Assembly (NCBI GenBank): GCA_965261025.1 | Contig: OZ253438.1 | Location: forward strand, 1,170,001 to 1,202,000 | Direction of reading: 5' to 3' | Source of the DNA: Chlamydiales bacterium | GTDB lineage: Bacteria > Chlamydiota > Chlamydiia > Chlamydiales > SM23-39 | DNA length: 32,000 nt | In this document: piece by piece, positions 1 to 18,189 of the stretch | Numbering within the stretch: the first letter of the stretch is position 1 | Layout: each line of letters starts with the position of its first letter | Notes under the pieces: model-generated | Databases searched by the model: none | What the model was told of the DNA's origin: nothing | The model's input: the letters and a program-made list of their open reading frames with translations, nothing else | Made by a program: the position numbers and the translations under genes

Positions 1-309
1 GTTCGTCCCTTTTTGAAAGTAGCTAGTGCAGTAGAGCTACCCTTTGAAGATAGGAGTTTTGATTTAGTAATTTCCATAAATACGATCCATAATTTAGAGA
101 GATTCGATTTACAAAGGGCTCTTAAAGAAATCCAAAGGGTTTCTAAGAAGGGAGCTTTTATTACGGTAGATGCTTATCGAAATGAAAAGGAAAAAGAGCT
201 GATGTATAGTTGGAATTTGACGGCAAAAACCATTTTACATGTGGAAGAGTGGAAAGAGCTTTTTGCCCAGTGCAGCTACACCGGTGACTACTATTGGTTC
301 ATGCCTTAA
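1..309 (+). CDS. Class I SAM-dependent methyltransferase (type-11-like), 3' fragment; the 5' end lies upstream of the window
   Basis: Frame 1 is open from base 1 to TAA 307-309. The translated tail (..ELPFEDRSFDLVISINTIHNL..KGAFITVDAY..) looks like the post-motif-I half of a Methyltransf_11 fold. It lies 100 nt upstream of the next gene on the same strand. Confidence 0.65.
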   Translation, partial: VRPFLKVASAVELPFEDRSFDLVISINTIHNLERFDLQRALKEIQRVSKKGAFITVDAYRNEKEKELMYSWNLTAKTILHVEEWKELFAQCSYTGDYYWFMP

Positions 310-411
310 AATCCTTCAAAAAAACGATTGCTTCACAAAAGTAGGTGTTGCTATCATCCCGGTTTTCCTGGTTAGAAGAATTTTTGTTTTTCGAATAGAT
401 ATATTGAGTGA

Positions 412-1674
412 GTGGATTATAAACCAAAAAAGTGGAACGAATCTGTGCTAAAAACAGCAAAAAAGAAGATAGAAAAAGCTCCTTTGATTGAGAAGAAGCC
501 CTGTTGTAGCGTTTGCTTGGATTCAGGTTTCTTACAAGAGCTTCTTGTTTTTCCGGAGCTTCCCTTTACAGGGATTTATGTTCCTTTAGAAGAAAGGGAG
601 GAGTCTTGTTTCTCTCAAGGGTTGGATCAGGGATTTTCTTTTTGTCCTCGTTGTTGTCATGGACAGCTGACTAATGTGGTAGATCCTTTTGTAGTTTATA
701 ATCAGTCCTATACTCATAGGGGCTCTAAAAGTGTTATTGCAACAGGAGGAAACCAGTTTTTTGCCCAATTTATAGAAAAAGTTTTTCCTCGCAGAACCTT
801 TCGGGGAGTTGTAGATATTGGCTGTAATGATGGTTTTTTGTTAAGACAGCTTGAAGAAAAGGCGGAACATCTTTTAGGGATTGATCCTATCTGGGGAAAT
901 AGAGAAGTAAAATTAACAGAAAAAATTCGTCTTTTGGGAGGGTTTGTACAAGAGGTAGATATTGTAAAATCACTGGGGAAACCTCTTGATTTAGTTATAT
1001 CTGCGCACACTTTTGAGCATGTAGAGAATCCAAAACAAGTTTTAGAGTCTATTGCAAAAAAGGTGGAAGTGGGTACGGTTTTAGTCATAGAAGTTCCCAG
1101 TTTGGATACACTTTTGAGAAACCATCGTTTTGATCAGATATTTCACCAACACATACAATATTTTTCTTGCAGATCGATCTCTACTTTGATGCAAAGTATA
1201 GGTTTTTCCTATGTTGCCCACGAATTTAATTATTCCATGTGGGGGGGGACTATGCTTTTTGCTTTTGTAAGAAAAGAGCAAAGAGAAGAAAAGCTCCCTG
1301 ATTTTCCAAAATATAGTTTAGAAGAAATCTTTTCTTCTTATGCTACCTTCCAAGATTCCTTAGAGAGGCTTTCAAAAAAGATCGCTTCTTTGGAAAAAGG
1401 AGAGATTTGCGCTTTTGGAGCGGCGCAAATGTTACCAGTTTTAGCGTATCATACTCCTTGCCATTTAGCTGGAATTTCTTCTGTCTACGATGATAATACA
1501 CAAAGGCATTTTCTACGCTATCCGGGATTTTCTTTTACTATACAAAACCCAGGAGGAGTCTCTTTTAGGGATAAGACAGTAGTAATTACTGCTTTAGATA
1601 GCGCTCGTCCTCTTATTGGTAGGTTAAATTCTTTGGGGGCTAAAAGTATACTACTACCACTACAGAACCTATAA
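412..1674 (+). CDS. Zn-ribbon C-methyltransferase of the NDP-sugar C-methyltransferase type (TylCIII-like; Methyltransf_13/14 architecture)
   Basis: N-terminal CxxC..CxxC pair (CSVC ... CPRC). SAM motif I is VVDIGCNDGFLL. The C-terminal domain contains FHQHIQYF and is paralogous to ORF 14981-16180. The start is uncertain: GTG 412, GTG 445 and TTG 484 are all in frame and none has a strong SD. The stop overlaps the next start (TAATG at 1672-1676). Confidence 0.75.
   Translation: MDYKPKKWNESVLKTAKKKIEKAPLIEKKPCCSVCLDSGFLQELLVFPELPFTGIYVPLEEREESCFSQGLDQGFSFCPRCCHGQLTNVVDPFVVYNQSYTHRGSKSVIATGGNQFFAQFIEKVFPRRTFRGVVDIGCNDGFLLRQLEEKAEHLLGIDPIWGNREVKLTEKIRLLGGFVQEVDIVKSLGKPLDLVISAHTFEHVENPKQVLESIAKKVEVGTVLVIEVPSLDTLLRNHRFDQIFHQHIQYFSCRSISTLMQSIGFSYVAHEFNYSMWGGTMLFAFVRKEQREEKLPDFPKYSLEEIFSSYATFQDSLERLSKKIASLEKGEICAFGAAQMLPVLAYHTPCHLAGISSVYDDNTQRHFLRYPGFSFTIQNPGGVSFRDKTVVITALDSARPLIGRLNSLGAKSILLPLQNL
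1241..1248 (+). repeat. Homopolymeric G8 tract inside the C-methyltransferase coding sequence (codons TGG GGG GGG = W-G-G)
   Basis: Read directly: ...ccatgt gggggggg actatg... This is the longest G/C run I found in the window; all other G/C runs are 6 nt or shorter. Confidence 0.95.
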
Positions 1675-2561
1675 TGAAAAAATTAAAAATTGCCATACTA
1701 GGAACGGGGAAGTTAGCTACAGATCTACTGGTAAAAGTGCTTCGCTCTTCCAAGCTTGAATGTGTCATCTTTGTAGGAAGAAACCGAGAGTCTCATGGAA
1801 TCTGTATTGCTAAAGATTTGCAGGTGCCAACCTCTTTTGAAGGAGTAGATTTTTTATTGAAACAGCCCCACTTATATGAACTGGTTTTCGATGTAACCAC
1901 AGCGCAGTCTCATCTTATTCACAACCAGCTTTTGCAGCCTCTTGGAAAACCTATTATAGATCTTACTCCTTGCCGTATTGGGAGTCTCCTTGTTCCCTCT
2001 ATTAATCTATCTTTAGTACATAAGACAAAGAATGTAAATTTAGTAAGTTGTGGTGGACAAACAGCTATCCCTATAATTCACGAGATTGTTTCCAAGGCAG
2101 ATTTGGTAGAATCAATCGAAATTGTTTCCACTATTGCTGCAAAAAGTGCGGGTAGAGGAACTCGTATAAATATTGATGAATATATTACCAAAACCGAAAC
2201 GGCCATTTCCTATTTTTCGGGATGTAAGAAGGTAAAAGCGATACTTATTTTAAATCCCGCCGTTCCCGAAGTGAATATGAAGACTACTCTTTATATGAAG
2301 GGCAAGCATACTGATCTTGATTCGATTCATAAAGCTATTTTATTAGCTGTTGAAAATATGCAGAAATATGTTCCAGGATATCGTTTGAAAGTACCCCCTG
2401 TGATTGACGAAGATGTTTTGACTGTAACTATAGAAGTCGTCGGTAGAGGAGACTACCTCCCTTTTTATGCGGGAAACTTAGATATTATAAATTGTGCAGC
2501 GATTCAGATTGCTGAGGAGTATGCAAATCATGTAACGGGATCGATGGCATGTCATGTATAG
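1674..2561 (+). CDS. Acetaldehyde dehydrogenase (acetylating), DmpF/MhpF family
   Basis: N-terminal Rossmann motif KIAILGTGKLATDLLVK. Catalytic-Cys signature NLVSCGGQTAIPIIHEI. Length of 295 aa is typical of the family. It overlaps the downstream aldolase gene by 13 nt, as DmpF/DmpG pairs do. Confidence 0.85.
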   Translation: MKKLKIAILGTGKLATDLLVKVLRSSKLECVIFVGRNRESHGICIAKDLQVPTSFEGVDFLLKQPHLYELVFDVTTAQSHLIHNQLLQPLGKPIIDLTPCRIGSLLVPSINLSLVHKTKNVNLVSCGGQTAIPIIHEIVSKADLVESIEIVSTIAAKSAGRGTRINIDEYITKTETAISYFSGCKKVKAILILNPAVPEVNMKTTLYMKGKHTDLDSIHKAILLAVENMQKYVPGYRLKVPPVIDEDVLTVTIEVVGRGDYLPFYAGNLDIINCAAIQIAEEYANHVTGSMACHV

Positions 2562-3568
2562 AGATTAGCGATGCTTCTTTAAGAGATGGAAATCATGCTA
2601 TATCCCATCAGCTTCACTTGGAGCATATAGCCCTTTATGCTCTAAAAGCAGATGAGTCTGGTATGTCCTACATTGAGGTAGGACATGGTAATGGTTTAGG
2701 AGCTAGTTCTTTTCAGATTGGGCATGCGCTCCACAGTGATGCAGAAGTTTTACATGCGGCTAGAAAAGCAGTGCAAAGGGGAAAGTTAAGTGTTCATGCA
2801 ATTCCTGGATTTGCCACAATTGATAAAGATATTTTACCTGCTATAGAAAAGGGAGTAGATACTTTTAGAATAGCCTCTCATTGCACGGAAGCGGATACGA
2901 CAGAGACCCAAATATCTTATTTGAAAAAGAGGGATAAGGAGGTTTTTGGAGTGCTCATGATGTCTCATAGGGCTTGTAAAAAGCAATTATTAGAGTCCGC
3001 AAGGTACATGCAAAGCTATGGAGCTTCTGGTGTGATTCTTATGGATTCAGCAGGAGCTTATATTCCGAGTGAGGTAAAAGAGAAGATTTCTTTTTTGGTA
3101 GATCATCTACAGGTTAAGGTGGGATTTCATGCGCATAATAACCTTGGTCTTGCTGTATCTAATTCTATTCTCGCTGTAGAATGTGGAGCCACTATTTTAG
3201 ACGCTACAGCAAGGGGTTTTGGAGCAGGTGCAGGAAATTGTCAGATAGAAATCCTGGTACCTCTTTTAAGCAGGCTAGGATATAGGACAAATATCGATCC
3301 CCATAAAGTTTTAGATCTGGCTGATTTTGCCGAAAAAACTTTTATACCAAGCATTCCTTCTCCTAGAACGCTTAGTATAGCAACCGGTTTGGCAGGCCTA
3401 TTTTCTGGCTTTGCTAAGCCTATAGAGAAGATGTGTGAAAAATATGAAGTAGATCCCAAGAAGGTAATTGAGACGCTAGGTTCTATGAAAGTAGTGGCAG
3501 GGCAGGAAGATGCTATTTTGCAGGCCATAAAAATGGTGATGAGTCATGATACAAGAAAATCTTCTTAA
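2549..3568 (+). CDS. 4-hydroxy-2-oxovalerate aldolase-like (DmpG/MhpE family, HMGL-like TIM barrel)
   Basis: ISDASLRDGNHAISHQ (substrate/metal Asp region) and VGFHAHNNLGLAVSNS (His-x-His metal ligands). 339 aa. Directly paired with the DmpF-like gene. Confidence 0.85.
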   Translation: MSCIEISDASLRDGNHAISHQLHLEHIALYALKADESGMSYIEVGHGNGLGASSFQIGHALHSDAEVLHAARKAVQRGKLSVHAIPGFATIDKDILPAIEKGVDTFRIASHCTEADTTETQISYLKKRDKEVFGVLMMSHRACKKQLLESARYMQSYGASGVILMDSAGAYIPSEVKEKISFLVDHLQVKVGFHAHNNLGLAVSNSILAVECGATILDATARGFGAGAGNCQIEILVPLLSRLGYRTNIDPHKVLDLADFAEKTFIPSIPSPRTLSIATGLAGLFSGFAKPIEKMCEKYEVDPKKVIETLGSMKVVAGQEDAILQAIKMVMSHDTRKSS

Positions 3569-4334
3569 GAAAGCCCTTACTTCAAATCGAGTTGTTTTTG
3601 GGACTTGGTCTGTCTTACACTCTGTTTCTTCTATAGAGGCCTTGGGGGCAACTCCTTTAGATTTTATCCTTTTTGATAGGGAACATGATTCTATTTCTTA
3701 CGAGAAAATTGCTCAGTATACAAGTTTTTGTTTTGCTAGCAGACTTACTCCACTGGTTAGAATTCCTGAAATTTCTCTTAGTGAGGTACAACGCGCGCTT
3801 GATTCGGGAGCGCAAGGGTTGCATGTTCCAAATATTTCAAGGCCTGAGCAAATAGAGAAGCTCTTGGAACTAGCGTTATTTCCTCCTTTGGGTAAAAGAG
3901 GGTTTGCTCCTTTTACTAAGGCTTGTGGGTATCAAAAAGAAAAGGTGTCTTATGTTTTACAAAACACCAATAACCAGCTTTTGCTAGCGGTTCATATAGA
4001 AAACAAAGAAGGAATAGAAAATCTTTCCAAGCTTCTTTCTTATGAATTTATTGATATATTTTTTGTGGGGCTTTTTGATTTAGCAAACTCTTTGGGTCTT
4101 CAGGGGGATATTAGGCATCCGCATTGGGAAGAAATCTTGAAGTCCCTTATAAAACAGATTCAGTCGAAAAATAAAATAGCAGGAACCATTGCTATGAATT
4201 TAGAGCAGGCGGAGTATTTGCTGGGATTGGGATTTCAGTATTTAACGATCTCTTCTGACTGTGATATGCTCTTTAGTTCTTATACAAACTTTTTACAAAA
4301 TGTGGGAAGGGTTTCTTATGGAGTTAAATCTTAA
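3546..4334 (+). CDS. HpcH/HpaI-family (class II, pyruvate-dependent) aldolase
   Basis: VVFGTWSVLHS..IEALGATPLDFILFDREHD and ..VRIP......RALDSGAQGLHVP resemble the HpcH/HpaI aldolase / citrate-lyase beta fold. The ATG at 3546 overlaps the upstream gene by 23 nt. Confidence 0.75.
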   Translation: MIQENLLKKALTSNRVVFGTWSVLHSVSSIEALGATPLDFILFDREHDSISYEKIAQYTSFCFASRLTPLVRIPEISLSEVQRALDSGAQGLHVPNISRPEQIEKLLELALFPPLGKRGFAPFTKACGYQKEKVSYVLQNTNNQLLLAVHIENKEGIENLSKLLSYEFIDIFFVGLFDLANSLGLQGDIRHPHWEEILKSLIKQIQSKNKIAGTIAMNLEQAEYLLGLGFQYLTISSDCDMLFSSYTNFLQNVGRVSYGVKS

Positions 4335-5109
4335 GGGAAAAAAAGCATTGGTTACAGGGGGCTCTAACGGAATTGGCAAGGCCATTGTCAAGGCTTTGGC
4401 TTCGGAAGGGGTCACGGTAGCTTTTACTTCTAGAAAGCAGTACCGAATTGATTCACTTTTATCAGAGATGGAGGAAGAGGGACTTTCTCATTTAGGGGTA
4501 CAGGTGGATATCTCAGAAGAAGCAGGTCCTAGTAGAGTAAAGGCTGTTTTAGAAGAAAAGTTTGGAGAAGTGGACATTCTCGTAAATAATGTAGGAGATA
4601 CTTTATCAATAGTGGATCCTTACTGTTCCTTATCTGATTGGAAAAGGATATACCGGCTAAATCTCGAAGTGCACGTAGAGTTAGTTAATTTATTTCTTCC
4701 TCATATGCTCAAGCAAAGGTGGGGTCGAATTGTAAATATCACGGCAGGCGCTGCTTTAGAAAACAGTGGTCCCGTTCCTTATTGTTCTATGAAGGCGGCG
4801 TATACGGCTTATACAAGATCTATGGCGCGAGTTTTGGCACCAGAAAATGTCGTTATGACAGCGGTGCTTCCTGGTGTTGTGCTTACAGAAGAAGGGCATT
4901 GGCAAAAAGTATTGGAAGACAGACCGAATCATGCAAAAAAGTATTTATCGGAGAGGACTTCTTTGAAAAGATTTGGGCTTCCTGAAGAGATTAGTCCCAT
5001 GGTGGTTTTTCTTTGTTCTGATGCGGCTTCCTTTTGTCAAGGGTCTATTGTTCCTGTAGAAGGAGGACAGGCCCGTCATTATTTTCATGTGCATGGAATA
5101 GGAAATTAA
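4318..5109 (+). CDS. Short-chain dehydrogenase/reductase (classical SDR)
   Basis: The protein starts MELNLKGKKALVTGGSNGIGKAI (TGxxxGIG). It carries NNVG and the YxxxK catalytic motif (YCSMKAAY). I prefer ATG 4318, preceded by GGGAAGGG, over the track's upstream alternative start at 4261. The TAA stop is immediately followed by the next ATG (5107-5112). Confidence 0.85.
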   Translation: MELNLKGKKALVTGGSNGIGKAIVKALASEGVTVAFTSRKQYRIDSLLSEMEEEGLSHLGVQVDISEEAGPSRVKAVLEEKFGEVDILVNNVGDTLSIVDPYCSLSDWKRIYRLNLEVHVELVNLFLPHMLKQRWGRIVNITAGAALENSGPVPYCSMKAAYTAYTRSMARVLAPENVVMTAVLPGVVLTEEGHWQKVLEDRPNHAKKYLSERTSLKRFGLPEEISPMVVFLCSDAASFCQGSIVPVEGGQARHYFHVHGIGN

Positions 5110-6870
5110 ATGAAGGCAACAGACTATATTGCCTCTGTTTTACGAAAAAAGGGTATTTCAGCAGTTTTTGGAGTAACTGGGGGTGCAGTCGTACATCTTT
5201 TTGATTCTGCAAAGAAGGAGGGATTAGAATGCGTGTTTACCCATCACGAACAGTCGGGAGCTTTTGCAGCAGGGGCTTTTGCTAGGCTCCAGGGATTAGG
5301 AGCTTTATTTTGTACTACAGGACCTGGAGGGACAAACGCTCTTACAGGGATAGCGGCGGCTTGGCTTGACTCCGTTCCCTTAATCTGCTTAGGGGGACAG
5401 GTAAGATTGTCTCACATGAAACCAAAAAATATTCGGCAGCAAGGAGCACAAGAGCTGGATATAGTCTCTTTGATGAAGCCCATTACAAAATCAGCACAAA
5501 CGGTAAAGAGTTTAGCTCTTTTACCTAAGATGTTAGAAGAGTCTATTGAAATAGCTACCTCAAAAAGACCGGGACCCGTTTATCTAGAAATACCCCTGGA
5601 TTTACAGTGGCAATCCATTACTTTACCAGAGGCTTCTTTACAGAAAGACTTTCCGGAAGTAGCTTTAGAAGAAGAAAAAATGAAGCAAATTTTTCAGCGG
5701 TTTAACCAGGCTAAAAAACCTCTTGTTTTGATAGGGCATGGTGTAAGACTAGCTAAGGCTAAATATCTTATAAGAGCTTTTTTGGATAAGAGCGAAGTTC
5801 CTCATATCACTACGTGGAATGCGGTAGATCTGGTAGAGGGAACGTCCCCTTTGTATCTGGGTTGTCCTGGGATGTTTGGCACTAGAGAAGCCAATTTAGC
5901 GGTACAGACTTGCGACTTTCTTCTTTGTATAGGGACGCATTTACCTATTCCTATTACAACAGGTTTATTTCATAAGTTTGCTACTTCTGCTGAGATTGCT
6001 ATGATCAATATTGATGACAAGGAGCTTTCCTCGCAAAGGGTAGAGATAAAGCATAAACTACTCATGGATGCTAGGGTTTTTTTAGAAAAGGCTCTTCCTG
6101 TTATTCAGCCTGTAAAAAATTGGTCTTGGAAAAGCTCCTGCTGTAGGATTCGGCAGCTTTTTTCTTCGAGCTTTTTACCGAAAAAGGAAAAAGGTTTTAT
6201 GGATGCTTATCAAGCGGTAAGAATCATCAACAGCTTTTTGGATAAAGATACTATTGTGGTTATAGATGGGGGAGGCACTATTGTACAGATTGGAATGCAA
6301 ACGCTTATTGCTAAAGAGAATCAACGAATTATAATTGATGCGGGACTTTGTTCTATGGGATCAGGGCTTCCTCATGTTATTGGCTCTTGTAAAGCAAGGC
6401 CTGATGCAAAGGTATTTTGTCTTGTGGGAGAAGGCAGTCTTATGTTTAATTTACAAGAACTTCAGACTCTCTCTGATCACAAGATGAATGTAGTAGTGTT
6501 CGTTTTCAATAATGAAGGATATCTTTCTATAAAACATACCCAGGAGAGTTTTTTAAAAGGAGTTTACTTAGGCTCTAGCAAAGAGGGAGGGATTTCTACG
6601 CCAGATCTCAAAAAGTTGGCTTCTTCTTTTTGCATTCGATATTCGCTGGCTGCGGAGGAAGAGACGTTTTCTGAGCAGCTCTCCATTATAAAAAAAGAAA
6701 AAGGCCCTCACTTATGTGAAGTTCGAATTTCTAAAGAGCAGTCTATTTCTCCAAAAATCGGATTTTCAAAAAATCAAGACGGGACAGCCTCTCAAAATCC
6801 CATAGATAAGATGGAGCCCTTCATCTTTGAAAAAGAAACAAGAGAATTCTTAGTAAATATAAAGACCTGA
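5110..6870 (+). CDS. Thiamine-diphosphate-dependent enzyme, acetolactate-synthase large-subunit / YerE-like carboligase
   Basis: HHEQSGAFAAGAFARL carries the catalytic Glu. TTGPGGTNALTGIAAAWLDSVPLICLGGQ is also present. The ThDP motif reads GEGSLMFN..(24 aa)..NNEGY, i.e. GEG instead of the canonical GDG. 586 aa. Confidence 0.85.
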   Translation: MKATDYIASVLRKKGISAVFGVTGGAVVHLFDSAKKEGLECVFTHHEQSGAFAAGAFARLQGLGALFCTTGPGGTNALTGIAAAWLDSVPLICLGGQVRLSHMKPKNIRQQGAQELDIVSLMKPITKSAQTVKSLALLPKMLEESIEIATSKRPGPVYLEIPLDLQWQSITLPEASLQKDFPEVALEEEKMKQIFQRFNQAKKPLVLIGHGVRLAKAKYLIRAFLDKSEVPHITTWNAVDLVEGTSPLYLGCPGMFGTREANLAVQTCDFLLCIGTHLPIPITTGLFHKFATSAEIAMINIDDKELSSQRVEIKHKLLMDARVFLEKALPVIQPVKNWSWKSSCCRIRQLFSSSFLPKKEKGFMDAYQAVRIINSFLDKDTIVVIDGGGTIVQIGMQTLIAKENQRIIIDAGLCSMGSGLPHVIGSCKARPDAKVFCLVGEGSLMFNLQELQTLSDHKMNVVVFVFNNEGYLSIKHTQESFLKGVYLGSSKEGGISTPDLKKLASSFCIRYSLAAEEETFSEQLSIIKKEKGPHLCEVRISKEQSISPKIGFSKNQDGTASQNPIDKMEPFIFEKETREFLVNIKT

Positions 6871-7729
6871 AGAATCTCCTTCCCCGGGAGATTATTCCTC
6901 CTAGAATGAGGAAGATAAGGGTTTTGGGGGATTTTTTTTGCCAAAATAGGGTATAAATAAATTCTTTTCTCAGCTCTTTCAAAATAGAGTAAGAGAGCAT
7001 CTTTTTTCTCACGTCAAGATAAGCGGGAGTTTGTAGGGATTCTAATATATAAAGACAGGGTTTTTTTCGGTCATTTTTAGGATGAGAAAGATTTTCATCG
7101 TGCAAACGCTTATGAGCCAACACCGCTTTTATAAAAACAAAACCATGTCTCAAGGCAATCACATGGGAAAAAAACCAATCGCAAAGAGGTCCTGTATTTT
7201 TTTGAACTCCTCCTGCTTGGAGAACATAACTTCTTTTGTAGATGCTAGTATGTCCTAAAAATGTGTGATTTTCTTGCTTAAATTTTGCCACTTCCTCTCT
7301 AGGGTAGAATTGGGAGGGGAAAGACGTTTGTTCATTGCATTTTTCTCCTTCTTTTTTTTTGTGAAAATAAAAAGGTTCAGAACAAGCAAACCCCGCTTCG
7401 GGGTGTGCTTTTAAAGAGGAGAGAGTAATTTCAATAAAATTTGGTAAAATGAAGTCATCGGAACAGGCAAAATAAATGTATTCTCCTTTTGCCCTATGTA
7501 GCCCCCTATTAGCGCTTTCATAAGCTCCTCGTCTCTTCTCGTTTTTGATAAAAATAATCTGAGGAAAGTTTCTTACGTAACTTTCTATAATATCGCGGCT
7601 ATTATCCGTAGAGGCATCATCGATAAGGATAAGTTCGTCAGGAAATTTTGTTTGTTGAGCAAATCCTTCCAAAGCAGATTCAATATAACGTCCAAAATTG
7701 TAATTGCACATAACTACAGAAAGACGCAT
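6821..7729 (-). CDS. Family 2 glycosyltransferase (GT-A fold)
   Basis: MRLSVVMCNYNFGRYIESAL..LILIDDASTDNS.. and a DxD-like CSDDF motif. ATG 7729 is preferred over the track's 7777 because GT2 proteins normally begin right at the 'SV(V/I)..YN' strand. The 3' end overlaps the convergent ThDP gene by 50 nt. Confidence 0.8.
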   Translation of the reverse strand: MRLSVVMCNYNFGRYIESALEGFAQQTKFPDELILIDDASTDNSRDIIESYVRNFPQIIFIKNEKRRGAYESANRGLHRAKGEYIYFACSDDFILPNFIEITLSSLKAHPEAGFACSEPFYFHKKKEGEKCNEQTSFPSQFYPREEVAKFKQENHTFLGHTSIYKRSYVLQAGGVQKNTGPLCDWFFSHVIALRHGFVFIKAVLAHKRLHDENLSHPKNDRKKPCLYILESLQTPAYLDVRKKMLSYSILKELRKEFIYTLFWQKKSPKTLIFLILGGIISRGRRFFRSLYLLRILLFLFQR

Positions 7730-7921
7730 TGAGGTTCCAAAAGGTTTTTTTGTATACAAGATACCTTGCGTAGGCATTTTTAAAAAATAAGAACAAAAAG
7801 AAAGTCTTCTAACTTTAGTTGTACAGAAAAGAAGATCTTCGTGTTAGACTCCGAGGTAGTTTTTACATACAAGTTAAGCTGCAGCTAAATATAGCCCAGA
7901 GGATAGTTTAGGTATTTTGAT
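7730..7921. promoter_or_regulatory. Divergent intergenic region that must hold promoters for the GT2 (minus) and Zn-ADH (plus) genes
   Basis: Back-to-back start codons. The only candidate element I see is a weak TTTACA (7862-7867) - N18 - TAAATA (7886-7891). I could make no confident -35/-10 assignment by eye. Confidence 0.3.
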
Positions 7922-8986
7922 ATGAAAGAGGGTAAAACATTCGCAGCTATCTTGGAAAAGCAAAAGTCTCCCCTTCTTTTAAAAGAGCTTAAACTTCCCG
8001 AATTAAAACCAGGCCAGGTTTTAGTCAAGATGCACTATAGCGGTCTTTGTAGAACCCAGATAAATGAGATTATAGGATTAAAGGGAGAGGATCATTACCT
8101 ACCGCACACTTTAGGTCATGAAGGGTCTGGGGTTGTAGTTAGTATAGGAGAGGAAGTTACTAAGGTACTCCCTGGAGATCACGTAGTGATTTCCTGGATA
8201 AAAAGTAAAGGTAGAGAAGCTTCTTCTACGCAGTATGAAGGAGAGGGGCAAAAAGTGAACTCAGGAGCAGTGAGTACCTTTTTAACCTATGCGGTTATTG
8301 CAGAAAATCGGTTGGTTTCTATCCCTAAAGATATTTGTCTAAAAGAAGCCGCTCTTTTAGGTTGCGCTTTTTGTACAGGAGCAGGTGTGATCTTAAACCA
8401 AATGAAGCTAAAAAAGGGAGAATCTTTGGCGATATGTGGATTAGGAGGTATTGGCATGAGCGCGCTTATAGCAGCTTCTATGCAGAAGGCTTTTCCTATT
8501 GTTGCAGTAGATATTTCCCGAGAAAAACTGCACAAGGCAAAAGAGCTTGGAGCTACTCATACCATCGATGCTAAAGAAGAAGGAGTTCTGGATAAAATTC
8601 GACAGATTACAGAAAAAAAGGGAGTAAATTTTTCTTTAGAATCAGCAGGTAGCTTATCTGCTATGGAACTCTCTTTTGCTTGCTTGTCTCCTGATAGGGA
8701 AGATTTTAGAAAAGGTGCTTGCTACATTGTAGGGAATGTAAAAAAACAAAGCACCATTCGGATAGATCCCTTTGATTTAATTTTGGGAAAAAAAATTTAT
8801 GGCTCCTGGGGTGGAGAAACTAACTTAGATGAAGATATTCCTAGATATTGTAAGCTCATTCAAGAAGGAAAACTTTCTTTAAAATCGCTCATCTCACACG
8901 AAGTTTCTTTAAAAAATATCAATTCTCTCATAGATCTTGCAAAGAAAAATGAGCTTCAAAGAGGTCTTGTGACTTTTTTGCAATAG
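7922..8986 (+). CDS. Zinc-dependent medium-chain alcohol dehydrogenase (MDR family)
   Basis: Catalytic Zn ligand contexts are GLCRTQ, GHEGSGVV and LLGCAFCTGAG. The NAD motif is GLGGIGMSA. The four-Cys structural-zinc loop that normally follows GDxV is absent (ISWIKSKGREASSTQYEG has no Cys). Confidence 0.8.
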   Translation: MKEGKTFAAILEKQKSPLLLKELKLPELKPGQVLVKMHYSGLCRTQINEIIGLKGEDHYLPHTLGHEGSGVVVSIGEEVTKVLPGDHVVISWIKSKGREASSTQYEGEGQKVNSGAVSTFLTYAVIAENRLVSIPKDICLKEAALLGCAFCTGAGVILNQMKLKKGESLAICGLGGIGMSALIAASMQKAFPIVAVDISREKLHKAKELGATHTIDAKEEGVLDKIRQITEKKGVNFSLESAGSLSAMELSFACLSPDREDFRKGACYIVGNVKKQSTIRIDPFDLILGKKIYGSWGGETNLDEDIPRYCKLIQEGKLSLKSLISHEVSLKNINSLIDLAKKNELQRGLVTFLQ

Positions 8987-9438: not shown

Positions 9439-9484
9439 CCATAAGTTTAGTAATTTCTAGCTATATTTGGGAAAATAGCGCTTT

Positions 9485-11541: not shown

Positions 11542-12231
11542 CTAGCTTGAAAGAGCCCAACGGATTGGTTTAATTCCTTTTTTTTCCAGATAACAATTTG
11601 TTTTTGAAAAAGGTTTAGAGCCAAAAAAGCCAAAAGAAGCAGAATAAGGAGAAGGGTGGGCCGAGGAAAGAACGAGGTGATCTTTAGGAATTTTTGCTAA
11701 GATCCTTTCGCACTTTTCTTGAGCTGATTTTCCCCAAAGGAGGAAAACCAAAGAATCTTTCTTTTCTGCTAAAAGCTGAATGACTCGATCAGTAAAAATT
11801 TCCCATCCTTTTCCATAGTGAGATCTAGGTTCTTTTTCTCTCACCGTTAAAGTAGCGTTGAGAAGAAGCACTCCTTCTTTGGCCCAACCCAGTAAAGAGC
11901 CTTGCTTTGGAGGAGGAATGTGTAGATCCTCTTCTAATTCTTTGAAAATGTTTTTTAAAGAAGGGGGAAAAGGAGTGCCTTCTTGTACGCTAAAAGAAAG
12001 GCCGTGAGCTTGGTCTTTTCCATGGTAAGGATCTTGTCCTAAAAGAACCACTTTTACCGCATCAAAAGGGGTTTGACAAAAGGCGTTAAAAAGGAGAGAA
12101 GAAGGGGGATAAAGGAGTTTTCCTTCTTTTATTTCTTTTCGCAAGAAATCTTGAAGATCTTTCATGTAAGGCATTTTCCACTCTTTCTCCAAAAGGTGGG
12201 CCCATTTTTGTTCCATATAAAAAGGAGTCAT
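11542..12231 (-). CDS. ung: Uracil-DNA glycosylase, family 1
   Basis: VVLLGQDPYHGKDQAHGLSFSV (water-activating Asp loop), GVLLLNATLTV and the C-terminal HPSPYSA His motif. Its ATG overlaps the TGA of the upstream epimerase gene (ATGA at 12228-12231). Confidence 0.92.
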   Translation of the reverse strand: MTPFYMEQKWAHLLEKEWKMPYMKDLQDFLRKEIKEGKLLYPPSSLLFNAFCQTPFDAVKVVLLGQDPYHGKDQAHGLSFSVQEGTPFPPSLKNIFKELEEDLHIPPPKQGSLLGWAKEGVLLLNATLTVREKEPRSHYGKGWEIFTDRVIQLLAEKKDSLVFLLWGKSAQEKCERILAKIPKDHLVLSSAHPSPYSASFGFFGSKPFSKTNCYLEKKGIKPIRWALSS

Positions 12232-13163
12232 ATATTTTTAAATTCACTTCTTTTCAAAAGAGGATAAGCAAATACCATCTCTTGAATTCCCTCTTCTAAA
12301 GTTTTTGTAGGAGCCCAACCGAGAGATTCTAGCTTTTCATTGCTTACGATATAGTTTCTTTGATCTGGATCTTTCCCTATAGGAGCAGAGTGAATATATA
12401 GGTCAGGAACATATCTTTGTATCGTTTCTGCTAGTTCTTTTTTACTGAGATTTGCAGAACTTAACCCTACATTAAAAGCCTCAGCTCTCATTCTATCAAA
12501 GTTTTGTATAGCAAATAGAAAAGCTCTAGCTACGTCTTTTACGTGGATGTAGTTTCTTTTGAAATGCTCTTCGAAAAGAACTAGAACCTTGTCATGACAG
12601 GCGCGAAAAGTAAAGTCATTGACCAAAAGATCGAGACGCATTCTGGGAGATATCCCAAACACAGTAGCGAGTCTTAAAGAAACGGCTTGCTTTGTTTGTA
12701 GTAACTTTTTTTCTATATCTACTTTGAGTTTTCCATATAAAGAAACGGGGTTTAACGGAGTTTTTTCGGTGCAGAAAAGATTGTTTTGCCCTAGCCCATA
12801 CCCGCTATTGCTATTTGGAAACACTATTTTTTTCTCTTTTGTCATATAGCGCAAAATCAGCTCAATAGCGTCGTAATTTACAAGCTTTGCCAAAGAAGGA
12901 GAGGCTTGGCAAATAGGGGCTCCTACTAAAGCCGCTAGAGGAAGAATGATATCTGCTTCTTCAACTAGATGAGCAAGAAGAGGTTCATTTTGTACTTCCC
13001 CTTTTATAAAACGAAAATGAGGACTGGCAAAGCAACAAAGAAGGGAGGTGGGTGTATACAAAAGAGAATCCAAAACAGTAACGAAAAACCCTTCTTCTAA
13101 AAGAAGAGGAACCATTACGGAGCCTATGTATCCTGCTCCCCCTGTTACTAAGATATGTTGCAT
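12228..13163 (-). CDS. NAD-dependent nucleotide-sugar epimerase/dehydratase/reductase (extended SDR)
   Basis: ILVTGGAGYIGS Rossmann motif and YGKLK (YxxxK). 311 aa. It overlaps the upstream nucleotidyltransferase gene by 16 nt. Confidence 0.85.
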   Translation of the reverse strand: MQHILVTGGAGYIGSVMVPLLLEEGFFVTVLDSLLYTPTSLLCCFASPHFRFIKGEVQNEPLLAHLVEEADIILPLAALVGAPICQASPSLAKLVNYDAIELILRYMTKEKKIVFPNSNSGYGLGQNNLFCTEKTPLNPVSLYGKLKVDIEKKLLQTKQAVSLRLATVFGISPRMRLDLLVNDFTFRACHDKVLVLFEEHFKRNYIHVKDVARAFLFAIQNFDRMRAEAFNVGLSSANLSKKELAETIQRYVPDLYIHSAPIGKDPDQRNYIVSNEKLESLGWAPTKTLEEGIQEMVFAYPLLKRSEFKNI

Positions 13164-13867
13164 AAGTTAGAAAGTGCGGTTTGTGCTTGTTGAAAGGATT
13201 TTTCTGTTCCTATATCGACAAAAGTCTTATCGCAAGGATACATAAAGAAACGCTTTTGTAAACAAAGGGGAAATACCTCTTTTTCCAAAGAAAAAGAAGG
13301 AGATTCAAAAGGCAAATCGGAAAAAAGGCTCTTTCGAAAAAGATAGGTACCACAGCTAATCCATCCTTTTTCTGAAAAAGGGATCTTCTCTTCAAAAGAA
13401 AGAATTTGGGAAGTAGTAGGATCTATGCTTACAGTTCCATATCTACTAGTGTCTTCCATTTGTTTTCCTAAAAGGGAAATGTCTGCTTTTTTTTCTAAAA
13501 AGCTTTGGTAGAATCCCTTTAGAGAATAGTCTGTAAAACAGTCCCCATTAGTAGCAAGTACATGAGGGGTTTTTACTAAATTCAAAGCTCTTTTTAAAGC
13601 ACCGCCCGTTCCCAAAGGGGTCTCTTCTATAGAAAAATAGAGGGGAAATGAGGTTTCTTTAAAGTGTTCCAAGATTTTCCCTGCTTTATATCCCACAGCC
13701 AGGATAATCCTACCTACCGAAGAAAAGGAGGCGAGCTGGTTTATCAAAAGATCCAAAAAAGGAATTCCTCGAATGGGAGCAAGGGGTTTAGGGACGGAAG
13801 AAACAACTTTTTGCAGACGAGTTCCGAATCCCCCTGCCAAAATAATAGCGTCTGTTTTATTTGTCAT
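13148..13867 (-). CDS. Sugar-1-phosphate nucleotidyltransferase (HddC / mannose-1-P guanylyltransferase-like)
   Basis: AIILAGGFGTRLQ..PKPLAPI signature (GxGTRL). 239 aa. ATGA overlap with the kinase gene at 13864-13867. Confidence 0.85.
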   Translation of the reverse strand: MTNKTDAIILAGGFGTRLQKVVSSVPKPLAPIRGIPFLDLLINQLASFSSVGRIILAVGYKAGKILEHFKETSFPLYFSIEETPLGTGGALKRALNLVKTPHVLATNGDCFTDYSLKGFYQSFLEKKADISLLGKQMEDTSRYGTVSIDPTTSQILSFEEKIPFSEKGWISCGTYLFRKSLFSDLPFESPSFSLEKEVFPLCLQKRFFMYPCDKTFVDIGTEKSFQQAQTALSNLCNIS

Positions 13868-14868
13868 AAGTCCTTCCTATAAATCAGAGAGCTTCCCTCT
13901 TTTTCTAAGGAAAAGGGAACCGCAAAAAGAGGACGAAGTGCTTCTTTTACCTCCATCTTCTTGGAAGGGGGAACCATTAGTAACAAGAAACCGCTCTGCC
14001 CTGCTCCACAAAGCTTCCCTCCTAAAGCTCCTGCTTTCCTTGCTTTTTCGTAATACAGATTAATCGTTTCGTTAGAAATTTGAGAAGAAAGTTTTTGTTT
14101 TAACTGCCAGCTATAGTCTAAAAGTTCGGCAAGTTTCTCCGGGAAAAAGAGCTCCTTTTGTTCTAGGAAAATTTTTTTTGCTTCGTATACCAAGGAAACC
14201 ATCGTTTCTAAAAAGGAATCATTTTTATTTTCTTTTGTATTTTGAATTTGCTCTTGGATTACTTTTTCTGCAAATCGTGTGGTTCCTGTATAAAAAAGCA
14301 TCAGATGTTCCATAAAGCAAAGGCGTTTTTCCTCAGGGATAGGTAGGGGAAAAACCTCTATTCCCTTAGGGGAAAATTCCATTAGGTTGCATCCTCCAAA
14401 AGAGGCATGGTATTGATCTTGGGATCCCACTTTTTCTCGAATCATCTGTTGTTCTACAAAGCAAGCCTCTTTAGCTAAAAGATTTTTAGAAATGTTTCTT
14501 CCTTGTAGAGCTGCTAAAGCGTGTAGAAATCCAACCGTAAAAGAAGAAGAGGAGCCAAGACCTGTTCTGGCGGGAAGATCCGAGCAAATATGAACATCTA
14601 AAGGCTCTTCTAACTTATAAAAACGGAGGCATTCTCGAATACTGGGATGCTCAATCTCTTCCAGGGAATTTACGGCCTCTACTTTGGAGTAAGATAGGCG
14701 CATCTTGTGCGGAAAAAAAGGGCTTGTTTTTTTCACGGTAACGTAGGTGTATTGATCTATAGTAGTTCCTAAGATAGCTCCTTTTTTTCTTAAGTAGTAT
14801 TCTGTATAGTCAGAACCTCCTCCGAAAAAACTAATCCTTACAGGAGTTTTAGAAATCACCAAAACCAT
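13864..14868 (-). CDS. GHMP-family sugar kinase (HddA / heptose-7-phosphate-kinase-like)
   Basis: N-terminus is KTPVRISFFGGGSDY. GHMP ATP motif is LPARTGLGSSSSFTVGF. 334 aa. It is the first gene of the minus-strand operon. Confidence 0.85.
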   Translation of the reverse strand: MVLVISKTPVRISFFGGGSDYTEYYLRKKGAILGTTIDQYTYVTVKKTSPFFPHKMRLSYSKVEAVNSLEEIEHPSIRECLRFYKLEEPLDVHICSDLPARTGLGSSSSFTVGFLHALAALQGRNISKNLLAKEACFVEQQMIREKVGSQDQYHASFGGCNLMEFSPKGIEVFPLPIPEEKRLCFMEHLMLFYTGTTRFAEKVIQEQIQNTKENKNDSFLETMVSLVYEAKKIFLEQKELFFPEKLAELLDYSWQLKQKLSSQISNETINLYYEKARKAGALGGKLCGAGQSGFLLLMVPPSKKMEVKEALRPLFAVPFSLEKEGSSLIYRKDL

Positions 14869-14980: not shown

Positions 14981-16180
14981 GTGTTTTGTAGAGTCTGTGA
15001 TAAAAGAGATTTTCGTTTAGTAGTAGATCTGAAAGAGCAACCTTGGGGGAATCATTTTTTGCAAAAAGAAGAGTTGGGAAAAGAACAAAAATATCCTCTT
15101 CGTCTTGTTTATTGCGAAAGTTGTTCTACTGTGCAACTAGACCATACGGTAAAAAAGGAAATCCTGTTTTTAGACCACACGTATCTTTCTGGTATGACTC
15201 AGACCTTAAAAAGACATTTTTCTAAGGAGGCTCAAAGAGTAGATAATCGATTTTTCTCTAAAAAAAAGAAAAAGAGAGTTCTCGATATAGGTTCCAATGA
15301 TGGTACGCAGTTACGCTTTTATAAGGAGATGGGATATGAAGTAGTGGGAGTGGAGTCTTCTAAAAAAGCGGCAGAGATTGCTTCAAAAGAGGGAATCTAC
15401 ACTATTTGTGATTTCTTTAACTTTGACCTTGCCAGGAAAATAGGAGGTTTTTTTGACGTAATCAATGCAGCAGGAGTTTTTTTTCACCTAGAAGAACTTC
15501 ATTCAGTTTGTGAGGGTATTCGTTATCTTTTGGAGGAAAAAGGGGTTTTTATCATTCAATGCATGTATATGAAAAACATCGTAGAAAAGGGGGCTTTTGA
15601 TCAGATTTATCATGAGCATCTTCTTTATTATACGGTTCGCTCTTTAACTACCCTTTTAAAAAGGCATGGATTGGAGCTTTTTGAGGTGGAAGTAAATCCT
15701 ATTCATGGAGGGTCTTTGATAGCCTATGCTTCGCATAAAGGAAGCTTTCCTATTCTTTCTTCTTTGCTGGCTTTAGAAAAAGAGGAAGAGCAACAGGGGT
15801 GTAACACCTATGAATACTACCAAAGATTTGCTGAGAAAATACAGGTCCTCAAAGAGGAAAATCTTCGATTTTTTTCTGAGGCAAAAAAAGAGGGAAAAAC
15901 GATTTATGGTATGGGAGCTCCTGTAAAAGGCAATACCCTTTTAAACTACTTTGGGATAGGAACAGAATATATTTCCTATTTGGTAGAAAAAAATCCTTTA
16001 AGGAAGGGATTGTATAGTCCTGGTATGCATATTCCCATAATTTTGGAGGAGGATCTGACTACAGTTCCAGATATCTACTACGTGTTGGCATGGAATTTTA
16101 AGCAGGAAATTTTGCAAAGGCACCTCGATCTTGTAAAAAGAGGAATTCAATTTCATTTTCCTATAGGTGGAAGCACATGA
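14981..16180 (+). CDS. Zn-ribbon C-methyltransferase (NDP/GDP-sugar C-methyltransferase type), paralogue of 412-1674
   Basis: GTG start with a strong SD. CRVC ... CESC zinc-ribbon pair. SAM motif I is VLDIGSNDGTQL. YHEHLLYY and the C-terminal Methyltransf_14-like domain are present. 4-nt overlap with the next gene. Confidence 0.8.
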   Translation: MFCRVCDKRDFRLVVDLKEQPWGNHFLQKEELGKEQKYPLRLVYCESCSTVQLDHTVKKEILFLDHTYLSGMTQTLKRHFSKEAQRVDNRFFSKKKKKRVLDIGSNDGTQLRFYKEMGYEVVGVESSKKAAEIASKEGIYTICDFFNFDLARKIGGFFDVINAAGVFFHLEELHSVCEGIRYLLEEKGVFIIQCMYMKNIVEKGAFDQIYHEHLLYYTVRSLTTLLKRHGLELFEVEVNPIHGGSLIAYASHKGSFPILSSLLALEKEEEQQGCNTYEYYQRFAEKIQVLKEENLRFFSEAKKEGKTIYGMGAPVKGNTLLNYFGIGTEYISYLVEKNPLRKGLYSPGMHIPIILEEDLTTVPDIYYVLAWNFKQEILQRHLDLVKRGIQFHFPIGGST

Positions 16181-17124
16181 GTATTTTGGTAACAGGGGCT
16201 TCCGGATTTTTAGGGAAGTTTTTAGTAGAGACTCTCTTAAAACGAGGGAAAAAAGTAATTGCTTTGGATAGCAAGAAAGCAGATCTTACCGAAAAAGGCT
16301 CTTTAAGGGATTTTGATTCTTATAATATTTCTACGATTTACCACTTAGCCGCTTGGACACAAGCAGGAGATTTTTGCCTTTATCATTCAGCACAGCAGTG
16401 GTTTATTAATCAAAAGATCAACTTGCACGTCTTAGATTGGTGGGTAAAAAAACAGCCTCAAGCCAAAATGGTAAGTATAGGAACTAGCTGTTCTTATGAT
16501 CCAGAACACCCTTTGAAAGAGGAATTTTACCTTCAAGGAAAACCAATAGATAGTCTGTTTACCTATGCTATGACAAAAAGAATGCTTCTTACGGGTTTAC
16601 AAGCTGTGAACAGGCAATATGGACTGAAGTATTTATATGTGATCCCCTCTACCCTTTATGGTCCCAGCTATCATGAGGATGGAAGGCAAATGCATTTTAT
16701 CTTTGACTTGGTTCGTAAAATTTTAGAGGGAAAGTTTTGCGGAAAACCTGTTATCTTATGGGGGGATGGGAAGCAAGAAAGAGAAATAATTCATGTGTTT
16801 GACTTTATAAGAACGCTTTTAGAATTGGAAGAAACTACATCAGATACATGGATTAACATAGGGGCCGGGAAAGGTTACTCTATTAGGGATTTTGCCCAAA
16901 AAATTTGCAAGCTGGTTGGCTTTCCCTGGGAAAAAGTTCAGTTTGATAGTTCTCGTTATGTAGGAGCAAGATCAAAGATTTTAGATATAGAAAAACTGCG
17001 AAAGCTTAGACCCAATCTTTCTTTTCTTCCATTGGAGGAAGGATTAAAAGACTTAATTGAATGGTTTTGTATTAAGAAGAATTATTCAGTATTTAAGGCT
17101 GACGTAGAAAGAAATGCAAAATAG
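16177..17124 (+). CDS. GDP-4-keto-6-deoxyhexose epimerase/reductase (GDP-L-fucose synthase / Fcl-like extended SDR)
   Basis: ILVTGASGFLGK, a YAMTK catalytic motif, and PSTLYGP..H plus VQFDSSRYVGARSKILDIEKL, which parallels the E. coli Fcl C-terminus (FDASKPDGTPRKLLDVTRL, recalled from memory). It sits immediately upstream of gmd. Confidence 0.8.
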   Translation: MSILVTGASGFLGKFLVETLLKRGKKVIALDSKKADLTEKGSLRDFDSYNISTIYHLAAWTQAGDFCLYHSAQQWFINQKINLHVLDWWVKKQPQAKMVSIGTSCSYDPEHPLKEEFYLQGKPIDSLFTYAMTKRMLLTGLQAVNRQYGLKYLYVIPSTLYGPSYHEDGRQMHFIFDLVRKILEGKFCGKPVILWGDGKQEREIIHVFDFIRTLLELEETTSDTWINIGAGKGYSIRDFAQKICKLVGFPWEKVQFDSSRYVGARSKILDIEKLRKLRPNLSFLPLEEGLKDLIEWFCIKKNYSVFKADVERNAK

Positions 17125-17148
17125 TAAGGTTTTATTTTAGGTTTATCT

Positions 17149-18189
17149 ATGGCAAAAAAAGCCCTGATTACAGGGATTACAGGGCAAGATGGTTCTTATT
17201 TAGCAGAGCTACTTTTAGAAAAAGGCTACCTAGTACATGGACTAGCCAGAAGAACTTCTTCTTCCTCTTTTACTAGAATTCTTTCGCTCCAAAATCACCC
17301 TAATTTTTTCCTTCATGAAGGAGACCTTACTGACTTTTCTAGCTTAAAAAGACTTTTGGAAGAAATCTCTTTTGAAGAAATCTATAATTTAGCTGCTATG
17401 AGTCATGTCCAAAGCTCTTTTTCCGTTCCCTTAAGCACAGCGGATATAAATGGGTTGGGGGTTTTGCGTTTTCTGGAGCTTTTGAGGAATAGCTCTGCGA
17501 ACACCAAATTTTATCAAGCTTCTACTTCAGAACTTTTTGGTAAAGTAAAACAAGTTCCCCAAAATGAAAATACGGCTTTTCATCCAAGATCTCCTTATGC
17601 TACTTCCAAGCTTTTTGCTTATTGGTCTGTAGTAAACTACCGAGAAGCGTACCATCTTTTTGCCTGTAACGGCATTTTATTTAACCACGAAAGTCCAAGA
17701 AGAGGAGAAAATTTTGTTACCCGAAAAATTACTTTGGCTGCGGCTAGAATAGAACGAGGACTACAAACAGAGCTGGTTTTAGGAAATCTTGAAGCGAAAA
17801 GAGATTGGGGCTATGCCAAAGATTTTGTAGAAGGTATGTGGAGAATCCTTCAGCAAAAAATGCCGGAGGATTTTGTTCTTTCTACAGGGAAGACTCACAG
17901 TGTAAGAGAATTTGTAGAACTTGTCTTTGAGAAAATAGGAAGAAATCTTGTTTGGGAAGGAAAAGGTTTACAAGAGGTGGGAAGAGATCGGAACACGCAA
18001 AAAATTCTTGTGAGAGTCTCTCCCGAATATTTCAGGCCTACCGAAGTAGACTTGCTCCTAGGAGATCCTTCTAAGGCAAAAAAAAAGCTAGGATGGGAGG
18101 CTTCTACTGATCTAAAAAATCTGGCTTCTTTGATGGTAGAAGAAGACAGAAAAACCGTAGAAAGGATCTGTCAGGAAAGCTCCTGTTAG
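17149..18189 (+). CDS. gmd: GDP-mannose 4,6-dehydratase
   Basis: KKALITGITGQDGSYLAELLLEKGYLVHGLARRTSS is almost identical in pattern to canonical Gmd N-termini. Also present: STSELFG, YATSKLFAYW, NHESPRRGENFVTRKIT and RDWGYAKDFVEGMW. Confidence 0.93.
   Translation: MAKKALITGITGQDGSYLAELLLEKGYLVHGLARRTSSSSFTRILSLQNHPNFFLHEGDLTDFSSLKRLLEEISFEEIYNLAAMSHVQSSFSVPLSTADINGLGVLRFLELLRNSSANTKFYQASTSELFGKVKQVPQNENTAFHPRSPYATSKLFAYWSVVNYREAYHLFACNGILFNHESPRRGENFVTRKITLAAARIERGLQTELVLGNLEAKRDWGYAKDFVEGMWRILQQKMPEDFVLSTGKTHSVREFVELVFEKIGRNLVWEGKGLQEVGRDRNTQKILVRVSPEYFRPTEVDLLLGDPSKAKKKLGWEASTDLKNLASLMVEEDRKTVERICQESSC

Follow-up and report, generated by a model that had tools for sequence, protein, structure and literature searches.

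A dehydrogenase-aldolase pair in a translationally coupled unit

The stretch of DNA analysed here (the window, 32,000 nucleotides from a Chlamydiales bacterium) carries at 1674-3568 two overlapping genes for an acylating acetaldehyde dehydrogenase of the DmpF type and a class II pyruvate aldolase of the DmpG type. An earlier sequence-only reading had recognised this pair, and its domains, its family scores and the gene overlap confirm the assignment. The dehydrogenase contains the AcetDehyd-dimer domain (PF09290, E 1.5e-45) and reached 341.9 bits against TIGR03215, where the NCBIfam equivalog cut-off is 282.25. The aldolase joins an HMGL-like domain (PF00682, E 7e-38) to the DmpG communication domain (PF07836, E 4e-16) and reached 323.8 bits against TIGR03217, with an equivalog cut-off of 286. 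The closest solved structures are the DmpG/DmpF-type complexes 1nvm, 4jn6, 4lrs and 8ih7. The overlap of the two genes, read directly, is 13 nt.

Both genes belong to a unit of six translationally coupled genes (412-6870), in which successive genes overlap by 1, 13, 23 and 14 nt and the last two follow each other with zero gap. The stop codon of the first gene, MTc, and the start codon of the dehydrogenase gene share the letters TAATG, and the 23-nt overlap is that between the DmpG-type gene and the gene of a second aldolase of the HpcH/HpaI family. MTc has the sugar 3-C-methyltransferase TcaB9 as its closest solved relative (5t64 and 4rv9, E 7e-19), and it shares 24% identity, over 251 aa, with the canonical C-methyltransferase found elsewhere in the window. 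A promoter scan of positions 1-9700 gave no signal above shuffled sequences; the terminator candidates there were weak and lay within genes.

The pair had also been called an orphan, after a search for catabolic partners only. However, the operon itself encodes a functional partner, a thiamine diphosphate (ThDP)-dependent enzyme, four genes further downstream. The window indeed holds no hydratase, extradiol dioxygenase or hydrolase of the kind looked for, as tblastn with E. coli MhpA-D returned nothing meaningful in it. The surroundings were correctly described as glycan biosynthesis: Pfam annotation of the other open reading frames gave GT4 glycosyltransferases and a Wzy_C-domain protein, among others. 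The topoisomerase I of the window is fused to a C-terminal SWIB/MDM2 domain, a fusion that we take to be characteristic of Chlamydiae. We call the genome chlamydia-like because of it, and it fits the earlier guess of a host-associated genome.

Locus L001, one of the related loci described below, has an aldolase 75% identical to that of the window, and its genes, from the methyltransferase to the nucleotidyltransferase, are ordered as in the window. The product of the truncated gene at the window start is 81% identical to the final 102 aa of the 219-aa methyltransferase of L001, so the cassette probably extends 5' of the window. The features of the window are collected in Table 1.

Table 1. Positions of the coupled unit, its neighbours and further features of the window
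Feature	Position	Strand	Basis or remark
S-adenosylmethionine (SAM) methyltransferase gene, 3' end, cut by window start	1..309	+	Methyltransf_11 match (Pfam)
MTc, TcaB9/TylC3-like nucleotide-sugar C-methyltransferase homologue	412..1674	+	relatives TcaB9 5t64, 4rv9
DmpF/ErwJ-type acylating acetaldehyde dehydrogenase	1674..2561	+	295 aa; AcetDehyd-dimer domain
DmpG/ErwI-type class II pyruvate aldolase (4-hydroxy-2-oxovalerate aldolase)	2549..3568	+	339 aa; HMGL-like and DmpG_comm domains
HpcH/HpaI-family class II pyruvate aldolase (second aldolase)	3546..4334	+	HpcH_HpaI E 3.4e-19
Classical short-chain dehydrogenase/reductase (SDR), candidate side-chain ketoreductase	4321..5109	+	adh_short E 3e-42
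YerE/ErwE/JanthE-like ThDP-dependent carboligase	5110..6870	+	586 aa; three TPP domains
Family 2 glycosyltransferase (GT2)	6821..7777	-	Glycos_transf_2 E 1e-27; syntenic in L001
Zn-dependent alcohol dehydrogenase (Zn-ADH)	7922..8986	+	ADH_N and ADH_zinc_N domains; kept in cassette
Uracil-DNA glycosylase family gene	11542..12231	-	
HddA-like GHMP kinase, HddC-like nucleotidyltransferase, epimerase/dehydratase-family gene	12228..14868	-	Pfam matches
Sub-operon: TylC3-type C-methyltransferase, Fcl-like reductase, GDP-mannose 4,6-dehydratase	14981..18189		compact
Oxidoreductase-membrane domain fusion	23983..26118	-	711 aa
Topoisomerase I-SWIB/MDM2 fusion (TopA-SWIB)	27525..30068	-	

Signature residues and phylogeny of the pair

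The motifs quoted in the sequence-only reading are all present and align gap-free with the catalytic cysteine, the Arg-Asp-His triad and the metal-binding histidines of the DmpFG complex. The catalytic cysteine of the dehydrogenase is Cys126 in VSCGGQTAIP (Cys132 in DmpF). In a gap-free alignment of the aldolase with DmpG (1nvm_A), R12/D13/H16 match R17/D18/H21 and H194/H196 match H200/H202; in DmpG, Asp18, His200 and His202 are the metal ligands, while Arg17 and His21 are catalytic. The claim that the pair looks catalytically intact thus stands for the catalytic and metal residues. It does not extend to two other positions of the aldolase, where Tyr291 of DmpG (Tyr290 of BphI) is replaced by Phe285, and Leu88 (Leu87 of BphI) by His83. 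In addition, Ile85 occupies the position of BphI Leu89.

The nine classical aldolases that we compared all have Leu-x-Leu at DmpG positions 88-90 and tyrosine at 291. Within the clade of the window aldolase, phenylalanine replaces Tyr291 in 85 of 87 sequences (valine in the other two), and all 120 of the 120 best database homologues carry it. The position of BphI Leu87 is held in this clade by His, Phe or Tyr, and less often by Leu. Judged from these alignments, Phe285 and His83 are a clade-wide signature and no defect. In BphI, Leu87 and Tyr290 enforce 4S stereospecificity; the Y290F mutation abolishes stereocontrol, and the paired substitutions L87N/Y290F and L87W/Y290F invert the specificity from 4S to 4R (PMC3962088). 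Since the combination of a polar or bulky residue with phenylalanine resembles the engineered L87N/Y290F variant, we predict that the window aldolase forms the 4R product. Such a natural combination would fit the 4R donor used by ErwE, the ThDP enzyme of erwiniose synthesis. The aldolase would then be the natural counterpart of an engineered 4R-specific BphI, which is useful for biocatalysis.

The dehydrogenase also differs from its classical relatives. Its beta-2 strand ends in VGRN, whereas all five classical dehydrogenases have VGID; members of its clade have VGRN or a similar Arg-containing motif. In Rossmann folds, an acidic residue at the end of beta-2 is typical of NAD+ use, and arginine suggests NADPH. 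The exchange of VGID for VGRN therefore suggests that the enzyme uses NADPH, as would be expected for a reductive biosynthetic step.

A phylogeny against classical pairs had been proposed as a check. We built neighbour-joining (NJ) trees with a classical set of nine aldolases and five dehydrogenases, to which pairs from the plasmid-borne meta-cleavage operons of Thermus, Burkholderia vietnamiensis G4, Rhodococcus DK17 and Pseudomonas veronii had been added. Both window proteins fell into a clade apart from the catabolic enzymes, with a bootstrap of 100/100 in each case. The pair shares with DmpFG, BphIJ, MhpFE and HsaGF the two-domain architectures, the gene order, the overlap, the catalytic cysteine, the metal ligands and the catalytic Arg/His residues, but the window proteins are only 34-41% identical to those of the catabolic complexes. 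The aldolase is 34-36% identical to MhpE, DmpG, HsaF, 4lrs and 8ih7, and 48-57% identical to those of the collected loci. The catabolic loci in our set (L005 and L088-L090) carry meta-cleavage partners; the window has none and offers a glycan context instead. Within the clade, percent identity does not separate contexts, as members linked to MhpD are as close to the window as glycan-linked ones.

These MhpD-linked members form a subclade from seven Actinomycetota loci (L060, L066, L070, L072, L079, L082 and L085), in which the pair is accompanied only by a hydratase of the MhpD/FAA family. We had labelled them catabolic and dropped the label: L060, the one inspected, has no ring-cleavage genes, and its neighbours are tRNA-synthetase-related genes. 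Two related Streptomyces plasmid loci of a biosynthetic kind contributed to this decision. On Streptomyces parvulus pSPA1 (L086, 8126-11871), genes for the dehydrogenase, the aldolase, a methyltransferase and an FAA-family hydrolase lie in a non-ribosomal peptide synthetase (NRPS) cluster that also has hydroxyphenylglycine-type genes and a halogenase. On a S. atratus plasmid (L091, 4239-9535), the pair adjoins genes for beta-ketoacyl-ACP synthase III (KAS III), an acyl carrier protein (ACP), a CoA-ester lyase and a MaoC dehydratase. Both pairs are members of the Phe/Arg-signature clade, and in these loci the pair seems to serve other biosynthetic routes.

The ThDP partner and two types of cassette

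We collected 84 related loci: an exact-protein look-up gave four, and a scan with one genome per species gave the other 80. Their neighbouring genes were assigned to classes through BLASTP comparison with reference proteins. Pectobacterium is absent among the 80 loci that the scan returned. Both genes of the pair are kept in 82 of the 84 loci. A ThDP enzyme stands beside the pair in 73 of them, in many phyla and amid nucleotide-sugar genes.

The ThDP enzyme of the window has the three-domain make-up of decarboxylase-type ThDP enzymes and appears to be a YerE-like carboligase. Its closest solved relative is JanthE (8rph), with 340 bits against 253 bits for the best acetohydroxyacid synthase, and it falls under every NCBIfam cut-off for acetolactate synthases. 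It is 36-62% identical to its counterparts in loci of the window's own type (type B, below) and 29-36% to those of type A. The motif that binds ThDP and Mg2+ reads GEG...NN, a conservative variant, not GDG (residues 440-442; window 6427-6435). None of the other type-B loci has GEG, which occurs in one further locus of the set; the orthologue in L001 (62% identical) has GDG. To judge from the motif, GEG may either be tolerated or indicate a weaker function.

The HpcH/HpaI-family aldolase scored 134.9 bits against TIGR02311, under the cut-off. Its homologues occur in 18 of the 84 loci, where the gene always adjoins that of the ThDP enzyme or is separated from it only by an SDR gene. Therefore, both aldolases probably feed the ThDP enzyme. 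The SDR of the window is 84% identical in L001 and is kept in type-B loci, and Zn-ADH homologues are found in L001, L018, L042, L058, L069, L071 and L074.

Two types of cassette recur. In about 64 loci (type A), cytidylyltransferase-like, 4,6-dehydratase and DegT/E1-like genes, sometimes with an E3 reductase gene, lie upstream of genes for the ThDP enzyme, the dehydrogenase, the aldolase and an extended-SDR reductase. Type A joins the pair to CDP-3,6-dideoxyhexose genes of the yersiniose type. Type B comprises the window and eight loci, from a chlamydia-like relative, Planctomycetia, Opitutia, Verrucomicrobia, Omnitrophota, Roizmanbacteria, Methylophilaceae and one unclassified bacterium. Here we found a 4,6-dehydratase-like gene, genes for the alpha and beta subunits of a pyruvate dehydrogenase E1 (PDH-E1), methyltransferases, a TcaB9-like homologue, the pair, an SDR, the ThDP enzyme and a Zn-ADH; the HpcH aldolase is usually present too, and heptose-activation genes are frequent. 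Upstream, L001 has in addition GmhA, an HldE-like enzyme, PDH-E1 alpha and beta and three genes of the epimerase/dehydratase family.

The HldE-like bifunctional enzyme of L001 (2600-4129) has a reversed domain order, with the nucleotidyltransferase at the N-terminus and the kinase at the C-terminus. It scores far under the HldE cut-off, so its sugar and nucleotide specificity may differ from that of ADP-heptose synthesis. A further observation concerns L023, from the metagenome-assembled genome Chlamydiae bacterium O_S4.2_7. It has an erwiniose-like arrangement of type A with a ThDP enzyme of the CDG type. Together with the type-B window, this means that both cassette types occur within Chlamydiae.

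The CDG motif has been reported as unique to JanthE. In an alignment of the ThDP enzymes of loci L002-L085, we counted it in 37 of the 52 type-A loci that have no HpcH aldolase and in none of the 13 loci with such an aldolase (Fisher p = 2e-6). Motif type and second aldolase are therefore linked.

Type B might be a second conserved cassette, distinct from the erwiniose type, which yields an undescribed multiply branched, C-methylated higher-carbon sugar. We hold this idea tentatively and consider it rather doubtful. It builds on the presence of two ThDP branching systems (PDH-E1 alpha/beta and the YerE-like enzyme), two aldolases (DmpG type and HpcH type), two types of methyltransferase and the heptose-activation genes. 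The two aldolases might act in series and give a polyol side chain longer than C4. As a speculation, clusters with both aldolases might make side chains of the tetradeoxydecose type. A literature search for the structures of aurantose and spirochaetose found no paper that gives them. No description of the type-B variant was found in the literature searched; the survey of Krug et al. 2024 might cover it.

JanthE, from Janthinobacterium sp. HH01, is a YerE-like carboligase that accepts ketones and takes 4-hydroxy-2-oxovalerate among its donors. Its cofactor motif is CDG, in contrast to GEG of the window enzyme. A paper from 2025 describes its physiological substrates as unidentified. We noticed that a ThDP enzyme of Duganella sp. 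BJB476 (L043, 6297-8135) matches JanthE over its full length with 1186 bits, at an estimated identity of roughly 88%. Immediately downstream of its gene follow a DmpF/DmpG-type pair and an ErwF-like reductase, amid CDP-deoxyhexose genes; the locus is erwiniose-like and has no HpcH aldolase. This context suggests 4-hydroxy-2-oxopentanoate as the likely native donor of JanthE and a CDP-keto sugar as its acceptor.

Proposed role of the pair, alternatives and further features of the window

The closest described system is the erwiniose cluster of Pectobacterium atrosepticum. There, ErwJ (acetaldehyde dehydrogenase) and ErwI (aldolase), which are 41-43% similar to BphJ/BphI, adjoin the ThDP enzyme ErwE and the reductase ErwF (Steitz et al. 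2022, PMC9306805). The authors proposed that ErwJ/ErwI convert acetyl-CoA to acetaldehyde and join it with pyruvate to 4-hydroxy-2-oxopentanoate, that ErwE ligates the resulting unit to CDP-4-keto-3,6-dideoxyglucose, and that ErwF reduces the product to erwiniose. In vitro, ErwE takes 4-hydroxy-2-oxopentanoate, refuses pyruvate and selects the R enantiomer; it prefers C5 and C6 4-hydroxy keto acids (PMC9306805). A biosynthetic role for such a pair is thus a concept already proposed by Steitz et al. 2022 and is not new here. The window resembles this cluster, as described, in that a BphJ/BphI-like pair adjoins a YerE-like ThDP carboligase among surface-glycan genes, and the proposed role of the pair, to supply 4-hydroxy-2-oxopentanoate for the C-branching of a keto sugar, is the same. 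Beyond the erwiniose set, the window adds the HpcH aldolase, the classical SDR, the Zn-ADH and the TcaB9-like methyltransferase homologue.

We consider it likely that the pair is the donor-supplying module of a pathway to an acyl-branched sugar, works in the biosynthetic direction and is the counterpart of ErwJ/ErwI. The sequence-only reading had named condensation within glycan biosynthesis as one option. This direction is now favoured by the operon shared with the ThDP carboligase, the linkage in 73 of the 84 loci, the fully supported clade and the ErwI/ErwJ precedent. Its second option, a sugar-derived aldehyde as substrate, found no support; the retained dehydrogenase and the precedent would rather point to acetaldehyde made from acetyl-CoA.

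The dehydrogenase would reduce acetyl-CoA to acetaldehyde, probably with NADPH, and pass it to the aldolase, whose DmpG communication domain is retained. From acetaldehyde and pyruvate the aldolase would form 4-hydroxy-2-oxopentanoate, for which we predict the 4R configuration. The YerE/ErwE-like ThDP enzyme would then decarboxylate this keto acid and ligate the 3-hydroxybutanoyl unit to the carbonyl group of a nucleotide-activated keto sugar. Candidates for the acceptor are a 4-keto-6-deoxy sugar made by the cassette dehydratase, a gene seen in the relatives only, or a heptose derivative. The SDR, the Zn-ADH or both would reduce the new side-chain ketone. Finally, the GT2 enzyme and the neighbouring glycosyltransferases would place the sugar in a surface glycan of this chlamydia-like bacterium. 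The HddA-like, HddC-like and epimerase/dehydratase-family genes are possible sugar-activation genes, and we infer their tie to the unit. Their best NCBIfam matches, HddA with 134.7 bits and HddC with 150.7 bits, are both under cut-off; L001 has the set in synteny, and L054 a comparable trio.

Several points weigh against this proposal. The direction of the reaction would follow from the context of the pair, and the likeness to ErwI (WP_011093013) and ErwJ (WP_011093012) comes from their description, not from their sequences. The tree split was obtained by NJ with a small classical sample. Unlike the erwiniose cluster, the window shows no reductase of the ErwF type (extended SDR) behind the aldolase gene, and the genes that would supply CDP-4-keto-3,6-dideoxyglucose (CDP-glucose, E1, E3) are missing. 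The 4,6-dehydratase of the cassette is presumed to lie upstream of the window by analogy to L001 only. The GEG motif could weaken Mg2+ binding by the ThDP enzyme. Lastly, the HpcH aldolase has no assigned role.

The missing reductase, and the lack of an obvious keto-sugar-forming dehydratase in the coupled unit, would also suit a different product. In that case the keto acid from the pair, 4-hydroxy-2-oxopentanoate or one related to it, would go into something other than a C-branched sugar, and the ThDP enzyme would handle nothing but small molecules; the product could be, for example, an acyloin or a polyol in free form, or an acyl group that is joined to the glycan at a later stage. Members of this clade also work outside glycan clusters, in the NRPS locus of S. 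parvulus and the KAS III/ACP locus of S. atratus. However, the coupled unit begins with a homologue of TcaB9-type C-methyltransferases and is flanked by the GT2 gene, the cassettes of the relatives hold 4,6-dehydratase-like and heptose-activation genes, and the characterised YerE-like enzymes act on keto sugars or ketone analogues. We consider a product other than a C-branched sugar improbable.

Somewhat less probable still is that the aldolase takes a sugar-derived or longer aldehyde and that the dehydrogenase reduces another acyl-CoA, such as 3-hydroxybutyryl-CoA or lactoyl-CoA. The pocket residues do differ from the classical ones at BphI Leu87 and Leu89, and the presence of a further aldolase gene in the same operon gives a hint of a more complex side chain. 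Caryophyllose and gastriose do have side chains of greater length, but the clusters for them use an aldolase of the HpcH/citrate-lyase family, not of the DmpG type (PMC9306805). In the caryophyllose cluster of Mycobacterium marinum these are the aldolase MMAR_2331 and the ThDP enzyme MMAR_2332 (PMC9306805). The window is similar in having the HpcH aldolase gene two genes upstream of the ThDP gene with the SDR alone between them; it has both types of aldolase, whereas no DmpFG-type pair is mentioned for the caryophyllose cluster as described by Steitz et al. 2022. The preference of ErwE for C5 and C6 donors, cited above, also argues against a longer aldehyde, as ErwE is the only characterised partner of a DmpG-type pair (PMC9306805). 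We found no sequence feature that identifies a different acyl-CoA.

A catabolic reading, in which the pair is either a leftover of catabolism or performs the final steps of a meta-cleavage pathway (aromatic or steroid) located elsewhere in the genome and cleaves 4-hydroxy-2-oxovalerate to pyruvate and acetyl-CoA, appears very improbable to us: both proteins do exceed equivalog cut-offs trained on catabolic enzymes, and gene order and overlap are those of the dmpFG and mhpFE operons, but the pair is translationally coupled to sugar-modifying genes in a window with no MhpA-D homologue, stands apart from the nine aldolases and five dehydrogenases of the classical set, lacks the Tyr, Leu and VGID signatures kept by every classical enzyme tested, and belongs to a genome that looks chlamydia-like, a group in which, to our knowledge, aromatic catabolism is not expected.

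Automatic annotation will label the two genes of the pair as enzymes of aromatic catabolism, here and in relatives across many phyla. Their context reveals a biosynthetic subfamily, and sequence alone is enough to recognise it: position 291 of the aldolase holds Phe in place of Tyr, position 88 a residue other than Leu, and beta-2 of the dehydrogenase ends with an Arg-containing motif. This gives a simple rule for re-annotation. We also predict that chlamydia-like and other bacteria of the Planctomycetota-Verrucomicrobiota-Chlamydiota (PVC) group put unusual C-branched sugars on their surface glycans, and such sugars matter for host recognition and serology. Three outcomes are useful and testable: the sequence rule, a natural active site predicted to be of the 4R type, and a type-B cassette that is widespread.

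Other parts of the window deserve a short description. The compact sub-operon with the TylC3-type C-methyltransferase, the Fcl-like reductase and the GDP-mannose 4,6-dehydratase looks like a route to a GDP-6-deoxy-3-C-methylhexose, which we take to be of the virenose/evalose type. The glycan may therefore bear a second, C1-branched sugar. The uracil-DNA glycosylase family gene lies amid the glycan genes and has the same place in L001 (18373-19059). Further downstream, a pyridine nucleotide-disulphide oxidoreductase with its dimerisation domain is fused to a C-terminal membrane domain of the VTT/DedA type. This architecture is unusual, and the gene adjoins one for a CDP-alcohol phosphatidyltransferase.

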